From contig JBGARZ010000019.1 of the NCBI GenBank assembly GCA_044229975.1, positions 1 through 64,000 of the forward strand: a stretch of 64,000 bases of DNA, given 5' to 3'. Below the pieces are notes generated by a model, which was given only the letters and a program-made list of their open reading frames with translations, did no database searches and had not been told where the DNA came from. Source of the DNA: Polyangiales bacterium. Its GTDB lineage: Bacteria > Myxococcota_A > Polyangia > Polyangiales > Ga0077539. The translations under genes were made by a program, and so were the position numbers. Shown here piece by piece: positions 1-7,546 of the stretch (the stretch's first letter is position 1; every line of letters begins with the position of its first letter).

Positions 1-36
1 CGCAAGAACACCCGCCGGAAGAAGACCGCGGGCTGA
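1..36 (+). CDS. 3' end of an unidentified gene (RKNTRRKKTAG*), truncated by the window edge
   Basis: Frame 1 is open to TGA at 34-36 and is followed immediately by a perfect hairpin. Confidence 0.4.
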   Translation, partial: RKNTRRKKTAG

Positions 37-55
37 CCCCGCAACGGGGTCAGCC
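31..55 (+). terminator. Terminator-like hairpin
   Basis: GGCTGACCCCG-CAA-CGGGGTCAGCC, perfect 11-bp stem; no U-tract. Confidence 0.5.
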
Positions 56-254
56 GACGGCGCGGCGGCGGGTCACGGCGCCGCCCGCCGCCCGCCGTCG
101 GGACCCATCAGAATTCTCCGCTTCCCCACGGTCACCAACAGCCTGATTGATCATGCTGGGTGATGTTCCAAACGAAACCCCCTCGGCGAGCTTGATCAGC
201 ACGATCCGAGGGGGTCCCCTCCGTTCAGCCCTGGCAGGCGAAAGGAGGGACCCA

Positions 255-848
255 CTGTCCCACGGATTGCTGGCCGACCCCAGGCTCTACGACGCCTTGT
301 TTGGCTTCGACGACGACCTCGCCACCGACGCCCGGGAGGGCGGCTGCGTGGGGTGCGGCGGGCGACTGCATCGCGCCAACTACCCGCGCAAGCCGCGGGG
401 CAGCCCCGCCGCGCTCGGCCCCGACTACGGCCGGCGCTTCAGCTTCTGCTGTGACCGCGACGCGTGCCGCAAGCGCACCACGCCGCCCTCGGTGCGCTTC
501 CTCGGCCGACACGTCTACCTCGCCGCGGTGTTCGTCCTGGTCTCGGCGATGCGCCACGGCGTCACCCCCGAGCGCGCCGCGAAGCTCACCGCGTGGTTCG
601 GCGTCAGCCGACGCACCCTCGGGCGCTGGCGGCGGTGGTGGCTCCAGACCTTCGTCGCGAGCGAGGTCTGGAAGCGCGTGTGCGGACGGTTCCTCCCCGC
701 GCCCGACGTCGCGACGCTGCCCGCGTCGTGGCTCGACGCGATGGGCGCGATGCCCGAGGTCGAGCGGGTGCAATGGATCCTGGCGGGCCTGCTCCCGTTG
801 AGCACCACCTCGCCGGGGAAGGGATCACGCATCGTGATGGGGTTCTAA
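255..848 (+). CDS. Transposon-associated zinc-finger + HTH protein
   Basis: CxxC (CVGC)...CC..C (FCCDRDAC) and HTH-like FGVSRRTLGRWRRWW. AAGGAGG at 242-248 points to an in-frame CTG start at 255 (ORF track starts at 147). Confidence 0.7.
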   Translation: MSHGLLADPRLYDALFGFDDDLATDAREGGCVGCGGRLHRANYPRKPRGSPAALGPDYGRRFSFCCDRDACRKRTTPPSVRFLGRHVYLAAVFVLVSAMRHGVTPERAAKLTAWFGVSRRTLGRWRRWWLQTFVASEVWKRVCGRFLPAPDVATLPASWLDAMGAMPEVERVQWILAGLLPLSTTSPGKGSRIVMGF

Positions 849-928
849 CGCCCGCAGAGCACGCCCGACGACGCCCGCGGACCCGACGAATAGGGTCCCG
901 CCAGGGTCCGACGAAGGGAGCAAAACGG

Positions 929-2461
929 GTGAGTGACGAGCACGGTACGAGGGTTCCTGATGAGTGGGCGCGGATGCGATTCGCGGTCGTGGGTCAGCTG
1001 TTGGCCGCGCCGCCGACGGTGCGCGGTGGTGTGCGTCGCGCGCTCGTCGCGCTCGCCGCGCAGACCTGGCAGCACCCCATCACCGCGGCGCCCGTGACGT
1101 TCAGCGTCTCGACGATCGAGCGGTGGCTGTACGCCGCGAAGGGAGAGCGCGTCGATCCGGTGAACGCGCTGCGTCGGCAGGTGCGCGCCGACCGCGGCAC
1201 GCAGCCGGCGGTGTCCGCGCGCATGGGCATCGCCCTGGCCGAGCAGCACCAGCGGCACCCGGGGTGGTCGTTCCAGTTGCACGCCGACAACCTCGACACG
1301 CTCGTGCGCGAGGACCCCACGCTCGGCGTGATGCCCTCGTACGCGACGGTGCGGCGCTACCTCCGTCGCCACGGGCTCACGCGCCAGCCGAGGCTCCACG
1401 AGGTCGCGCGCCCGGGTGAGGTGCGCGCCGCGGTGGCGCGGACGCAGCGGGAGACGCGCAGCTACGAGGCCACGCACGTCCACGGGCTGTGGCACCTCGA
1501 CTTCCACGTCGGCTCGCGCAAGGTGCTCTTGCCCGACGGGCAGTGGGTGTCGCCGCGGATGCTCGGCGTGATCGACGACCACTCGCGCCTCCTCTGCCAC
1601 GGCCAGTGGTACGCCGGCGAGACCGCCGCCGATCTGGTGCATGGGCTCTCGCAGGCGATCCAGAAGCGCGGGTTGCCGAGGCACCTGCTGACCGACAACG
1701 GGAGTGCGATGGTCGCCGCCGAGACCGTCGAGGGACTCGCCGCGCTGGGCATCGTCGGGGACACCACGCGCGCCTACTCCCCGGAGCAGAATGCGAAGAT
1801 GGAAGTCTTCTGGGCCCAGGTCGAGGGTCGCCTGATGGCGATGCTCGAAGGCCACCCGGAGTTGACCCTCGCGCTGCTCAACGAGGCGACGCAGGCGTGG
1901 CTCGAAGGGGAGTATCACCACAAGGTCCATCGCGAGACCGGCGCGACGCCCTTCCACCGCTTCCTGCACGCGCCCTCGGTGGGTCGCCCGAGCCCTTCGA
2001 GCGACGCGCTGCGACGGGCGTTTCGGATGAAGGCCGAGCGACGACAGCGCAAGAGCGACGGCACCTTCACGCTCGACGGCGTGCGCTTCGAGGTGCCCTC
2101 GCGCTACCGGCAAGTGACCACGCTCTCGGTGCGCTACGCGCGCTGGGACTTGTCGTGCGTGGACCTCTACGACGAGCGCCACGGCACGCGGCTGTGCGTC
2201 GTCCTGCCACTCGACAAAGCCGCCAACGCCGACCGTCGGCGCCGTGTGCACGAGGCGTCAGCGCCCGTCGGGGACGCGAGCACGCCGAGACCCGAGCCCG
2301 AGCCTGAAGCGATCGCGCCGCGCCTGCGCGAGCTGATGGCGCAGTACGCCGCCACGGGGCTGCCGCCCGCGTACGTGCCCCGCGCGGCGGCTCCGACCGA
2401 CGCGAGGCCGGAGGGCGACGCGCTCCCAGGGCTCGACGACGCGCAGGAGGCGTCACGATGA
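929..2461 (+). CDS. DDE-type integrase/transposase with Mu-transposase-like C-terminal domain (TnsB/TniA-like)
   Basis: WHLDFH, VIDDHSR, LTDNGS, NAKMEVFW (rve core); N-terminal HTH SVSTIERW; C-terminal KSDGTFTLDGVRFEV; GTG start after GAAGGGAG. Confidence 0.9.
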   Translation: MSDEHGTRVPDEWARMRFAVVGQLLAAPPTVRGGVRRALVALAAQTWQHPITAAPVTFSVSTIERWLYAAKGERVDPVNALRRQVRADRGTQPAVSARMGIALAEQHQRHPGWSFQLHADNLDTLVREDPTLGVMPSYATVRRYLRRHGLTRQPRLHEVARPGEVRAAVARTQRETRSYEATHVHGLWHLDFHVGSRKVLLPDGQWVSPRMLGVIDDHSRLLCHGQWYAGETAADLVHGLSQAIQKRGLPRHLLTDNGSAMVAAETVEGLAALGIVGDTTRAYSPEQNAKMEVFWAQVEGRLMAMLEGHPELTLALLNEATQAWLEGEYHHKVHRETGATPFHRFLHAPSVGRPSPSSDALRRAFRMKAERRQRKSDGTFTLDGVRFEVPSRYRQVTTLSVRYARWDLSCVDLYDERHGTRLCVVLPLDKAANADRRRRVHEASAPVGDASTPRPEPEPEAIAPRLRELMAQYAATGLPPAYVPRAAAPTDARPEGDALPGLDDAQEASR

Positions 2462-3309
2462 GCGCGAGGACATGGTCGGCGCTGGGTCTCAAGTACAACC
2501 CCTTCTCGCCCGACGTCCCGGTCGAGGCGCTGTGGGTCTCGCCGAGGACCGAGCACTTCTGTTGGCGGGTCAACCACCAGGTGAGCGAGGGAGGCTTCGC
2601 GCTCATCAGCGGCGACGTCGGCACGGGCAAGTCGGTGACGCTGCGCGTGCTCGCCGAGCGCCTGGGGGGCTTGCGCGACGTCACCGTCGGCACGCTCACG
2701 CACCCGCGCAGCCGCGTCGCGGACTTCTACCGCGAGCTCGGCGAACTCTTCGGAACGACCTGCACCGCGAGCAACCGCTGGGGCGGCTTCAAGGCGCTGC
2801 GCGAGAAGTGGCACGCGCACATCGAGGCGACCCTGATGCGCCCGGTGCTGCTCATCGATGAGGCGCAGGAGATGTACCCGGAGGTGCTCTCGGAGCTGCG
2901 CGTGCTGACCAGTACATGCTTCGACTCGCGGGCGATCCTGACGGTGGTGCTCGCCGGAGACGCGCGGCTGCCGGAGATGTTTCGGCGCGAGGAGCTGGTG
3001 CCGCTCGGCAGCCGGATGCGCGTGCGGATGACGCACGAGTACGCGACGCGCGAGGAGCTGCGCGGCTGCCTCGTGCACCGGCTCACGCAGGCCGGCAACG
3101 CGACGCTCGCGACGCCGCAGCTGATCGACACGCTGTGCGAACACGCCGCCGGCAACTACCGCGTGATGCTCACGATGGCCGCCGAGCTGCTCGACGCCGC
3201 CGTCGCCCGGGAGCAGACGACGCTCGACGAGAAACTGTACCTGGAGGTCTTCGCGCCGACGGCGGCGCGACGAACGACGGCGCCGACGGGGAAGGCGGCG
3301 CGGCGATGA
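2458..3309 (+). CDS. ExeA/TniB/TnsC-like AAA+ ATPase (transposition helper)
   Basis: Walker A GDVGTGKS, Walker B LLIDEAQ, VLAG motif, N-terminal LKYNPF; overlaps the transposase stop. Confidence 0.9.
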   Translation: MSARTWSALGLKYNPFSPDVPVEALWVSPRTEHFCWRVNHQVSEGGFALISGDVGTGKSVTLRVLAERLGGLRDVTVGTLTHPRSRVADFYRELGELFGTTCTASNRWGGFKALREKWHAHIEATLMRPVLLIDEAQEMYPEVLSELRVLTSTCFDSRAILTVVLAGDARLPEMFRREELVPLGSRMRVRMTHEYATREELRGCLVHRLTQAGNATLATPQLIDTLCEHAAGNYRVMLTMAAELLDAAVAREQTTLDEKLYLEVFAPTAARRTTAPTGKAARR

Positions 3310-3629
3310 CCCGCCCGCGTGATCGGGTCGACGTCGAGACACGGCTGACCCCGGAGATGATCGCCGAGACGCCCGAGCGGGCCACCGTGGAGGCCCTGCG
3401 GGCCGTGCTCGACCTCACCTGCCTCGCGCTGATCGCGGCCAACCCTGCGCTGCTCCACGACGGCTGGCCCTCGATGCCCGCACACGGGTACCTCGCGGGC
3501 GTCCGTGTCGCGGACCGGATCCTCAAGCACGGGCACGCGCTGCGACGAGAATTGGTGCGGTACGCCCACCACCTCGATCGACAGCGCGAGCGTGCGACCG
3601 AGCGGCTGGAAGACGAACTCCCTTTCTGA
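3306..3629 (+). CDS. Small helical hypothetical protein (107 aa) ending in EDELPF
   Basis: ATG overlaps the ATPase stop (ATGA); lies inside the end repeats. Confidence 0.75.
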   Translation: MTRPRDRVDVETRLTPEMIAETPERATVEALRAVLDLTCLALIAANPALLHDGWPSMPAHGYLAGVRVADRILKHGHALRRELVRYAHHLDRQRERATERLEDELPF

Positions 3630-3719
3630 TGACCGCCAGGTGACGACGGGCCACGAGCTCACGGACCGGACGGCGACTCGCCGCCGTCAGGCGCCGCGCT
3701 CCTGCACTCACTGCGATCC

Positions 3720-3761
3720 CATCAAAGAGCGTGATCAGATCACCATCAAGAAGCGTGACCA
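3720..3761. repeat. Tandem imperfect 18-bp repeats, putative transposase binding sites
   Basis: CATCAAAGAGCGTGATCA and CATCAAGAAGCGTGACCA, 24-bp period. Confidence 0.65.
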
Positions 3762-3767
3762 CGCTCA

Positions 3768-3935
3768 CCCGCGCCCAAGCGAGGCGATCCATCGGCGAGT
3801 ACATCGATGACTTCTACAACAGCGAGAGGCGCCACTCGTTCAACGACTACGTCAACCCGATCGAACACGAATTACGTTGCCAGGTAAAAGCCCTGGCCCC
3901 ATAAGATGACTGTCCACGAAACCGGGGGAACCTCA
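3768..3935 (+). pseudogene. IS3-family remnant: transposase OrfB C-terminus plus right inverted repeat
   Basis: TRAQARRSIGEYIDDFYNSERRHSFNDYVNP...* (TAA 3902-3904) fits the IS3 EYI.FYN..RRHS...Y..P motif; followed by CTGTCCACGAAACCGGGGGAACCTCA ending in CA. Confidence 0.8.
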
Positions 3936-4072: not shown

Positions 4073-4774
4073 TCAGCGCACCGCTCGCCCGAGCGCGATG
4101 TGCGTACGGAAGTCGATGCGGGTGTCGAGCCCGTACCAGCCGTACGCCGTCGGGTCTCCGCCCGGCGTCTCCACGAACAACGTCAGCGTCCCGTAGCCGA
4201 AACCGCTCTGGTGCTGGCGAGGTCGCGTGTCGTCGCCGTGCGGGATGGACGTCGCGTCGGCGATGCGCACCGACCACCGTCGACCGTCACGGTCGAGCCG
4301 TCGCGGCGCTTCCTGCACGAAGGCCACATGACCGGTGTTGCGTGAGGCCACCGTCGGCGGTCGGCGCCACGCGATGACGTCGCCCGCGCGGAGGTCCTGC
4401 ATGCGCGTGAGGCGGAGCCATCCGTCGCGAGGATGGTCGACGGGCGACGCCGCGATGACGTCGTGGAAGTCGCGGGCCACCGGACGCCCGCGACCGTTGC
4501 GCCGCAGCACGGCGGCATGAGCGCGGGGCGCGGCGTGGGAGAGCACGAGGCTCGCCATCGCCGAGCAGTCGAAGTCGTAGCGACCAGCGCGCTCGTCGAC
4601 GCGCGTGGCGTGCACGTAGTGGGTGCTGCGAACGTTGGCCCGGATGCGCTCGATCTCGGACGCGACGGGCGACCGGGCGACCGCGGGCTGCACCGCACGC
4701 ACGGCACGCGGCGCATGCTGGGCCGCCGCGGTGGTGGTGAGCGAGAGGGCGACGAGGACGGCGCGCAGGTTCAT
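4073..4774 (-). CDS. Secreted NlpC/P60-like (papain-fold) cysteine hydrolase
   Basis: Signal peptide; YDFDCSA, LRAGDVIAW, TGHVAFV. Confidence 0.65.
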   Translation of the reverse strand: MNLRAVLVALSLTTTAAAQHAPRAVRAVQPAVARSPVASEIERIRANVRSTHYVHATRVDERAGRYDFDCSAMASLVLSHAAPRAHAAVLRRNGRGRPVARDFHDVIAASPVDHPRDGWLRLTRMQDLRAGDVIAWRRPPTVASRNTGHVAFVQEAPRRLDRDGRRWSVRIADATSIPHGDDTRPRQHQSGFGYGTLTLFVETPGGDPTAYGWYGLDTRIDFRTHIALGRAVR

Positions 4775-5101
4775 GGTCGCGACGGTAGCGAGGGCGCTGG
4801 AGTGGGGCGTCATTTTGGGCAGCGGCCATCGGCACAACCTCGCGTGGTGGCAGTCCCGGGGGGCCTACGCTGCGGCGTAAACACTGGGGCTGCCACCGCC
4901 AGACATCGCACCACAAAGGCTTCGATTGAAGGCCCTCCCAACCGACATGACTCTCGTCAAGAAGGTGACGAGTCGTCACGTTTCCGATGGTCAACCTTCC
5001 CGATGACGCTTAGCGTCGAGACAGTGGATCATCGCGTGACCCCACGAAATCTTGAGTTCGTCCCCGTCAAGGTGGGGCGAGCGACCATCAGCGACGGCCC
5101 G

Positions 5102-6445: not shown

Positions 6446-7546
6446 TCAGCGCGCGACGCCGCTGATCTCCGCCGGGATGCCGCACCACGCGGGCGCGCCC
6501 GGCGGGAGTCCCGCGTCGAGGTACGGCGAGCTCGCGGGCGCGAGCCCGTAGGGGTGATCGAGGAAGAAGCGCCACACGAAGGCCGAGCGCGGCTCATCGG
6601 GCGCGGGCGCCATGAGCGGCGGCAGGGCGTGGCCGCGGTCGTGGGTGCACGCAATGACGAAGTGGCCGTCGTCGATGAGCGCGTCGCGGAGGCGCCGCGA
6701 GGCGTCGTCGAAGTTGACGATGAGCCGGTCGGTGGGTCCGCCCCACACCACGATGGTGGGCAGCTTGTTGGGCTGCGGCGTGTACTCCAGGCGCACCACG
6801 TTGGGCACGTAGCCGAGGCCACCGGAGAGAATCGCCGCCGACGCAAAGCGCTGCGCGTACGGGGTGCTGAGCAGCGACGTCAGCCACAGCGCGCCCGCGC
6901 TCACGCCCATCGCGTGGATGCGCGCGGGGTCGACGCGATACTGCGTGGTGACGCACGCGAGCAGGTCGTCGAGGAAGAGCCGCTCGGCCTCCGGGCGGCT
7001 GGAGAGGATGAACGGCCACGTGAAGTAGTTGGTCGCGCGCCCGTCGGCCTCGCGCTGCTGGTCGGGCACCGCGACGATGATGCGGTAGCGCGCGGCGGCT
7101 GCCTCGATGTCGGCCTCGCGCACCATCTGGTTGCTGTCGCCAGCGAGCCAGTGCCACGCCACGAGCAGTGGCCAGCGATCGGTCCCCGCCGCGTCGTAGT
7201 TGCTGGGGACGATCAGCCTGAACTGCCGCTGCGCCATCCCCGTCGGGAAGGCCGCGTTGAGCCCCGCCGCCGAGTCGGCCCCACCGCGCAGCGTCGGACA
7301 CGCGCCGCGCGAGTACGTCGGCAACGGCGGCGGCGTCCGCGGCCACGTCGTCGCCACCACCCGCACCCGGTCGGGCGCAACGTCTTCGTTCACGCCCGCG
7401 TCGACGCTCTCACCCGCGTCCATCGCCTCGCCCGCGTCGACGACTGCAACGTCCGCGAGGTCCGTCGATGGAGCGTCTGGCGCGACGGTGGTCGCTGCCT
7501 CGGTGCAACCCAGCGCGAGCGCGCTCGCGACGAGGAGACGCCTCAT
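6446..7546 (-). CDS. Alpha/beta-hydrolase lipoprotein (esterase/PHB-depolymerase-like)
   Basis: Lipobox LALGC; VDPARIHAMGVSAGA (GxSxG); C-terminal GH. Confidence 0.75.
   Translation of the reverse strand: MRRLLVASALALGCTEAATTVAPDAPSTDLADVAVVDAGEAMDAGESVDAGVNEDVAPDRVRVVATTWPRTPPPLPTYSRGACPTLRGGADSAAGLNAAFPTGMAQRQFRLIVPSNYDAAGTDRWPLLVAWHWLAGDSNQMVREADIEAAAARYRIIVAVPDQQREADGRATNYFTWPFILSSRPEAERLFLDDLLACVTTQYRVDPARIHAMGVSAGALWLTSLLSTPYAQRFASAAILSGGLGYVPNVVRLEYTPQPNKLPTIVVWGGPTDRLIVNFDDASRRLRDALIDDGHFVIACTHDRGHALPPLMAPAPDEPRSAFVWRFFLDHPYGLAPASSPYLDAGLPPGAPAWCGIPAEISGVAR

Follow-up and report, generated by a model that had tools for sequence, protein, structure and literature searches.

The closest described relative of the system analyzed here is the transposon Tn6049, of which 12 copies, often located on genomic islands and carrying a gspA-like ATPase gene, have been reported in Cupriavidus metallidurans CH34 (PMC2864759). 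Related elements from beta-, gamma- and delta-proteobacteria were tabulated in 2012 under the columns Mob prot, TnpA, ATPase and UF, with several protein clusters already occupying the fourth-gene slot (PMC3414803, Table S5), and the Tn6049 module was called uncategorizable in 2018 (PMC6210171). The stretch of DNA under study (hereafter, the window) comprises 64,000 nucleotides at the start of contig C25 (JBGARZ010000019.1) in the 10-Mb, 71% GC genome of a Polyangiales bacterium (assembly GCA_044229975.1), and its left edge holds a four-gene element that, judging from sequence comparison, is almost certainly a Tn6049-like transposon. An initial annotation had proposed that this element defines a poorly described transposon class. 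The description is apt in that the type was uncategorized in 2018, but the class is not unnamed, since it matches Tn6049 and had been tabulated in 2012; the window element is a further member of the named but uncharacterized Tn6049 type.

Tn6049 identity and the conserved core

The 12-bp ends printed for Tn6049 (PMC4739549) bound a 3,517-bp element, and a search of plasmid proteins returned 45 records, with Cupriavidus foremost among them. The copies in C. metallidurans CH34 and in Pseudomonas aeruginosa pHS87a present the same four-gene layout as the window element: a Cys-rich open reading frame (ORF), a transposase (TnpA), a GspA/ExeA-like ATPase and a small ORF, in that order and within 3.5-3.7 kb, with TG...CA ends that fit one profile, short target-site duplications and no resolvase. 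The products of the first three genes are 44%, 56% and 58% identical to those of the window element. For the fourth gene, no match to ORF4 was obtained with blastp and hhalign returned 2.9%, the acidic tail ending in Phe being the sole feature in common.

The family was surveyed through its transposase, which matched in 26 of the 301 genomes of the class, and of 568 confirmed metagenome loci, 80 were retained; a scan of viral contigs found no relative. In the window, the four ORFs of the initial annotation are confirmed, all of them on the plus strand and with the last two junctions coupled through ATGA. When family profiles were compared with the PDB, the best matches were ShCAST TnsB (E 1.2e-7) and MuB (E 3.4e-6), both distant, and single-sequence searches of the same database came back nearly empty. 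These profile matches bear out the proposed pairing of a Mu/Tn7-superfamily transposase with an AAA+ ATPase, while the Mu-type C-terminus once attributed to TnpA is weak, as Mu-transpos_C matches three of 46 family members and not the window TnpA. The ATPase lies downstream of the transposase in all 73 metagenome loci with room for it, and ORF1 lies upstream in all 69 with room, so that the anticipated co-occurrence of ORF1 with the transposase was borne out. The reciprocal search, starting from ORF1, yielded matches in 11 of the 301 genomes. Twelve of these ORF1 loci were checked: seven are near-full-length with an adjoining tnpA, one is a fragment next to a truncated tnpA, one runs off its contig and three are fragments without tnpA. 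Every near-full-length match outside the source genome with room downstream (7/7) adjoins tnpA.

The start of ORF1 was placed on the basis of an AGGAGG sequence at 243-248 and the N-termini of homologues. Pfam gave only weak helix-turn-helix (HTH) matches for ORF1, its profile found next to nothing in the PDB, and fold searches returned no specific match, only weak zinc-ribbon and HTH rows (best Z 4.3), with no TniQ among the rows listed; the predicted structure (pLDDT 79) consists of a helix, a zinc ribbon, an HTH and a helical tail. An Atlas search led to unnamed or DUF6431 clusters, and ORF1 is homologous to a DUF6431-annotated protein (hhalign 94.6%). Homologues are numerous (1,524 in one search; 2,693 clusters at 50% identity) and conserve five Cys and about ten basic (Arg/Lys) positions, with only three acidic ones. 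Because conserved acidic residues are so few, a TnsA-like nuclease role for ORF1 is unlikely. Its architecture suggests instead that ORF1 is likely a DNA-binding core partner, and that a role at the left arm of the element or in the element's expression is more probable than one in DNA cleavage or target selection.

An iterated profile built on 100 distinct family ends revealed a conserved 25-bp motif and an asymmetric arrangement of repeated sites. Left arms carry sites at about +9 and +43 and an inverted one at about +73, the latter two in 31 and 39 of 48 left ends, respectively, and right arms carry sites at +9 and +33. The same single profile matches the ends of the window element and the right end of Tn6049. 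An 18-bp motif previously noted at both sides of the window element is real (148-165 versus the reverse complement of 3720-3737, 14/18 positions), but it pairs internal second copies of the end motif and not the terminal repeat. The left-arm copy of this pair (L2, Table 1) is likely a transposase-binding site. In 22 of 69 loci, a further copy of the end motif (score above 12) is located upstream of tnpA, whereas a control segment taken from within tnpA has one in none of the 69, and the window instance at 824-840 could possibly serve as an autoregulatory site. The left arm of L035, an intact relative described below, showed neither a sigma-70 promoter nor a terminator. Left ends lie 560-790 bp from ORF1 at five loci (L045-L048 and L096), and the extra left-arm DNA of L045-L048 resembles, by eye, an opposite-strand SEC-C/TPR passenger gene. 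A lone end-like motif (score 21.5) at C8:12630 of the source genome, near which profile searches found no family gene, may be a chance match or a remnant.

To define target sites, 23 plasmid or chromid loci were examined; four were duplicates, one had no right end and one was a different element, leaving 17 distinct Tn6049 insertions. Sixteen of these are flanked by duplications of 4 bp (6 insertions), 5 bp (5), 6 bp (3) or 7 bp (2), with unrelated sequences. The seventeenth has the left junction of another of these insertions next to a new right flank (L147 versus L151), an apparent adjacent deletion. The window element and its intact relatives L035 and L036 each have a 6-bp duplication, in three different targets. 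A fixed attachment site was sought and found neither among the 16 Tn6049 sites nor among the three sites of the window clade. The targets seen include an IS3 element, a probable group II intron, a mer operon and a conjugation gene. Unrelated sites with duplications of 4-7 bp argue against a fixed-site selector, and a TniQ/TnsD-like sequence selector is not supported, there being no fixed site and no fixed duplication length. A TnsE-like, fork-directed role is possible.

Slot 4 and the SSB-like tail

The gene downstream of the ATPase varies in a way that the three core genes do not. Among the 86 loci with a complete ATPase, this position (slot 4) holds a helicase-like, RepA-like AAA_25 gene in 45, an ORF4-type gene in 23, a Tn6049-type gene in 7 and a CHC2-type gene only in 2; it is empty in 6 and could not be assigned in 3. 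ORF4 is hence not conserved across the family, and slot 4 is not essential, because it is empty in six loci. Among the AAA_25 genes, two include DnaA_N, two are broken and five are followed by a CHC2-type zinc finger; Pfam confirms AAA_25, DnaA_N, Bac_DnaA_C and the DnaG zinc finger in slot-4 proteins. At L114, L140 and L136, DnaA_N is fused to AAA_25 (two loci) or a Bac_DnaA_C protein precedes an ORF4-type gene. Slot-4 genes are mostly ATGA-coupled to the ATPase. The slot-4 types cluster on the transposase tree, yet at least 14 changes are needed to explain their distribution on it, as estimated from a quick tree of 74 rows with long branches, from which 13 class-sample loci were left out.

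ORF4 itself has no match in Pfam, and an Atlas search returned nothing. Fold searches gave no specific match for its predicted plain helical hairpin, and the best Z (8.8) reflects a generic hairpin match, again with no TniQ among the rows listed. What ORF4 does carry is the docking motif of SSB (the protein that binds single-stranded DNA), that is, acidic residues followed by a hydrophobic residue, Pro and Phe at a free C-terminus, and the host SSB ends in the same acidic-PF motif. A terminal PF preceded by at least two acidic residues occurs in 17 of 24 ORF4-type and 5 of 8 Tn6049-type proteins. The same tail was found in 3 of 6,481 proxy host genes, and none of the 86 ATPases ends in PF. Across 97,810 six-frame pieces of the genome, only four end in D[DE][ILM]PF: SSB, two ORF4s and one protein encoded on C23 (minus-strand frame starting near 548933). 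In SSB, the C-terminal hexapeptide binds DnaG, chi, PriA and ExoI (PMC5872125). The bodies of the ORF4-type and Tn6049-type proteins show no detectable relation, and since unrelated bodies share it, selection seems a better account of the tail than inheritance alone, although a remote kinship of the bodies is possible. Motifs that bind the beta clamp are of the QxxLxF type. Such a motif fits these tails poorly, with Gln at position -6 in one and at -5 in one of the 24 ORF4-type tails, and in none of the 8 Tn6049-type tails. The literature searched, which excluded the original description of Tn6049 and most subscription journals, yielded neither an SSB-tail mimic in a transposon nor tests of Tn6049 genes.

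The ends and their duplications, the order and co-occurrence of the genes, the variability of slot 4 and the composition of the tails are observed; from them we infer the following binding and reaction steps. TnpA would bind several repeated sites at both ends and nick at the CA termini, with the ATPase presenting target DNA by analogy with IstA/IstB and MuA/MuB (PMC10122671, PMC10293859). Insertion would take place at unrelated sequences, creating the short duplication, and would leave a branched intermediate. Because the element has neither a TnsA-type nuclease nor a resolvase, host replication would have to finish the event, as a cointegrate or by copy-out. ORF4-type proteins may speed this completion if their tail attracts proteins that partner with SSB, PriA or primase for example, and in sister elements the slot may serve the same step by providing a replication module directly, be it a helicase-like ATPase, a primase zinc finger or DnaA-type domain. 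The model as a whole, which combines a Tn6049-like element, ORF1 as core DNA-binding partner and a slot 4 that recruits or supplies replication functions, appears to us about evenly balanced between right and wrong.

Several observations weigh against this model. Six loci with a right end close by have an empty slot 4; at one of them, L062, the transposase is 84% identical and both ends are present. Seven of the 24 ORF4-type tails fail the PF-acid motif, and 19 of the 23 ORF4-type loci are themselves seeds of the profile that defines the type. The family counts are not independent, because loci were picked by transposase similarity and near-duplicates are included. Among 30 elements from metagenomes or metagenome-assembled genomes with both ends, duplications of at least 3 bp were found in 7 and of at least 4 bp in 4 (chance expectation 0.6%), a scarcity that may be due to collapsed assemblies or rearrangement. 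No cointegrate or circle was seen directly. No end-to-end circle junction appeared among the listed joints when contigs of four runs were compared with L035, a result that carries no weight, as contigs drop rare forms. The positive evidence on the role of ORF1 consists of its architecture and co-occurrence.

Three other readings of the accessory genes were weighed. The slot-4 protein, be it ORF4 or a helicase, could be a TnsE-analogous, structure-specific selector that, by way of SSB partners, guides the element towards replication forks or towards mobile DNA entering the cell. TnsE insertions show a one-orientation bias, whereas the three plasmids with two Tn6049 copies each always carry them in opposite orientation, in a sample that is small and may be affected by selection. 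The shared tail and the replication-type contents of the slot, its operon position after the ATPase, the frequent location of Tn6049 on genomic islands (PMC2864759), targets such as the IS3 element, the probable intron, the mer operon and the conjugation gene, and the predicted targeting of lagging-strand forks by TnsE (PMC10293859) would all suit this selector; accessory DNA, however, is also where insertions survive, and a primase zinc finger suits synthesis better than targeting, so that we consider it unlikely.

Slot 4 could alternatively hold a passenger or regulator without any part in the transposition chemistry, its tail being a decoy by which replication or repair in the host is damped. 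The content of the slot can be exchanged and is absent from some loci, the changes on the transposase tree are frequent (at least 14), and ORF4 evolves faster than the ATPase: compared with L035, ORF4 differs at 18 synonymous and 34 non-synonymous codons, versus 40 and 11 for the ATPase. Contents that are narrowly replication-related across unrelated families, and mostly ATGA-coupled, are nevertheless unlike random cargo, and this makes the passenger reading distinctly improbable. Most doubtful is a role of ORF1 as a TniQ analogue that bridges ATPase and target in a Tn7-like system with a new selector, since for all that ORF1 is small, combines zinc and HTH features, is strictly co-inherited and accompanies a transposase whose profile is closest to ShCAST TnsB, it has no sequence similarity to Tn402 TniQ (hhalign 0.3%), none of 46 ORF1 members matches Pfam TniQ, the 16 Tn6049 sites are unrelated with 4-7-bp duplications, and the gene lies upstream, uncoupled from the ATPase and with a gap holding an end-motif copy before tnpA.

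A wider reading sees a very widespread transposon family in which slot 4 accepts interchangeable modules that control host replication at the transposition intermediate. The slot would be filled by SSB-tail mimics or by a helicase, a primase fragment or a DnaA domain belonging to the element, and ORF1 would be a new kind of transpososome subunit, indispensable and without kinship to TnsA or TniQ; this we hold tentatively, as somewhat less probable than not. What is known of how replicative and copy-out transposons pass their branched intermediates to the replisome comes largely from Mu and a small number of IS elements. The family would provide a natural swap experiment, in which the same core occurs with a slot that is empty or holds an SSB-tail mimic, a helicase-like ATPase or a primase zinc finger. 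The role of ORF1, the third gene that the core needs, is a second question, and with 12 copies of Tn6049 in CH34, a standard laboratory strain, both can be tested directly.

Boundaries of the element and nested insertions

Features of the window element and its flanks are collected in Table 1. The right end had been placed correctly at 3767, but the left boundary at 144 was wrong. Position 144 was ruled out as the left end by comparison of contigs C17 and C28 and by the intact relatives: the first 140 bp of the window belong to a foreign element, and the true left terminus lies at C28:153357. The terminus and the first copy of the 7-bp duplication made by the foreign insert (40 bp including the duplication) occupy C28:153357-153396, and the terminal inverted repeat is a perfect 14-bp match between the C28:153357 end and window positions 3754-3767. 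The insert has TGTTG...CAACA ends and is multicopy and collapsed in the assembly; its other end lies where contigs C28 and C12 stop, and duplications of 7 bp link C28 to C25 and C12 to C17. The join between C28 and C25 follows from these shared duplications. The two halves of the four-gene element are flanked by two parts of one transposase gene of a target element that we take, from its motifs and layout, to be of IS3 type. The locus is accordingly a three-deep nesting, in which an IS3 element received the four-gene element, 3,660 bp (3.66 kb) without the later insert, which in turn received the insert, located between the first two of its end sites. L035 (93% transposase identity) and L036 (90%), both intact, show the same left end, the perfect 14-bp terminal repeat and their own 6-bp duplications. 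Because the insert parts end site L1 from L2, the window copy is probably immobile, disabled by the insertion in its left end.

Table 1. Features of the four-gene element and its flanks in the window.
Feature	Position	Strand	Basis or remark
End of a different multicopy element, inserted in the transposon left arm; not transposon	1..140	.	100% identical to C17:1-140
Second copy of the 7-bp duplication from the left-arm insertion	141..147	+	Shared with C28 end
Second end-motif copy of the left arm, L2; the 18-bp motif of the initial annotation	150..166	+	Profile scan
Inverted third end-motif copy of the left arm, L3	180..196	-	Profile scan
ORF1, ~197 aa, core gene; N-terminal helix, Cys zinc ribbon, HTH, helical C-terminus (predicted)	255..848 (start ~255/258)	+	DUF6431-related
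Internal end-motif copy upstream of tnpA	824..840	+	Profile scan
TnpA, 510-aa DDE transposase; invariant D191, D256, E292	929..2461	+	Pfam rve
AAA+ ATPase, 283 aa, ExeA/GspA-like; Walker A G52-K58, Walker B D134-E135	2458..3309	+	Pfam AAA_22
ORF4, 107 aa, optional slot-4 gene; predicted helical hairpin, SSB-like acidic C-terminal tail	3306..3629	+	
Right end, with a pair of end-motif copies (3719-3735 and 3743-3759, spaced by 24 bp) and the terminal inverted repeat of 14 bp (3754-3767)	3719..3767	-	
6-bp target-site duplication	3768..3773	+	Other copy C28:153351-153356
3' part and right end of the presumed IS3-type target element	3774..3935	+	Translations; 5' part at C28:~152236-153356

The left-arm insert is probably a member of the IS21 family. 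An IS21 at C17:8055-10438 was considered as its source and set aside, as the comparison did not show shared ends. This IS21 lies within C17:6546-11640 (partly L003), has IstA and IstB above the NCBIfam cutoffs, follows a Cys-rich ORF and one that looks ParB-like (by eye) and adjoins an 89% variant of the end of the left-arm insert. In L035, the duplicated sequences at 3174-3179 and 6804-6809 flank the intact relative within an apparent group II intron, upstream of its reverse transcriptase (by eye). Two neighboring genes of the window are unrelated to the element, a secreted protein with an NlpC/CHAP-like Cys-His pattern (4073-4837, minus strand; by eye) and a eukaryote-type Ser/Thr kinase (4433/5100-6442, plus strand).

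Comparison with other known systems

The gene order of the window element recurs in DUF6431-DDE-ExeA elements, represented by an A. caldus plasmid locus (L153) and by a second, distant four-gene element in the same genome (C36:222497-226186, L001). Their transposases are only about 31% identical to that of the window (31% for the C36 element), and the terminal sequence of the C36 element differs. The latter has a weak DUF6431 match in its ORF1 and a 7-bp duplication, and its ORF4-type gene encodes the same tail. It interrupts an apparent PD-(D/E)XK nuclease gene (by eye), and its left arm, which is longer than usual, may contain a further small insert.

Curated IS models were also compared with TnpA, and none reaches its cutoff. 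IS21 elements resemble the window element in combining a DDE transposase with a coupled AAA+ helper (IstA/IstB), in having CA ends that carry two or more repeats spaced by about 23-24 bp, similar to the 24-bp spacing between the window sites R1 and R2, and in lacking a strong target sequence (PMC10122671). The window TnpA, however, scores 45.5 against an IS21 cutoff of 160 and the window ATPase has no match to the IstB model, whereas the true IS21 in the same genome passes both; the window element also has an extra core gene and slot 4. The best NCBIfam model for TnpA is IS481, which is also the RefSeq label of the Tn6049 transposase, but the score (122) falls short of the cutoff (224). IS481 elements are single-gene elements not known to carry an ATPase, in contrast to the window family, in which the ATPase is present in 73 of 73 loci.

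Tn7-like elements (including type V-K CAST), Tn402/Tn5053 and Mu share with the window element the TnsB/MuB profile matches and asymmetric ends with multiple sites. The window element differs from them in having no TniQ/TnsD, TnsA, Cas or resolvase gene. Tn7-like elements, Tn402 and Mu generate a fixed 5-bp target duplication, which is absent here: duplications measure 4-7 bp in Tn6049 and 6 bp in all three insertions of the window clade, which is also a difference between the window clade and Tn6049.

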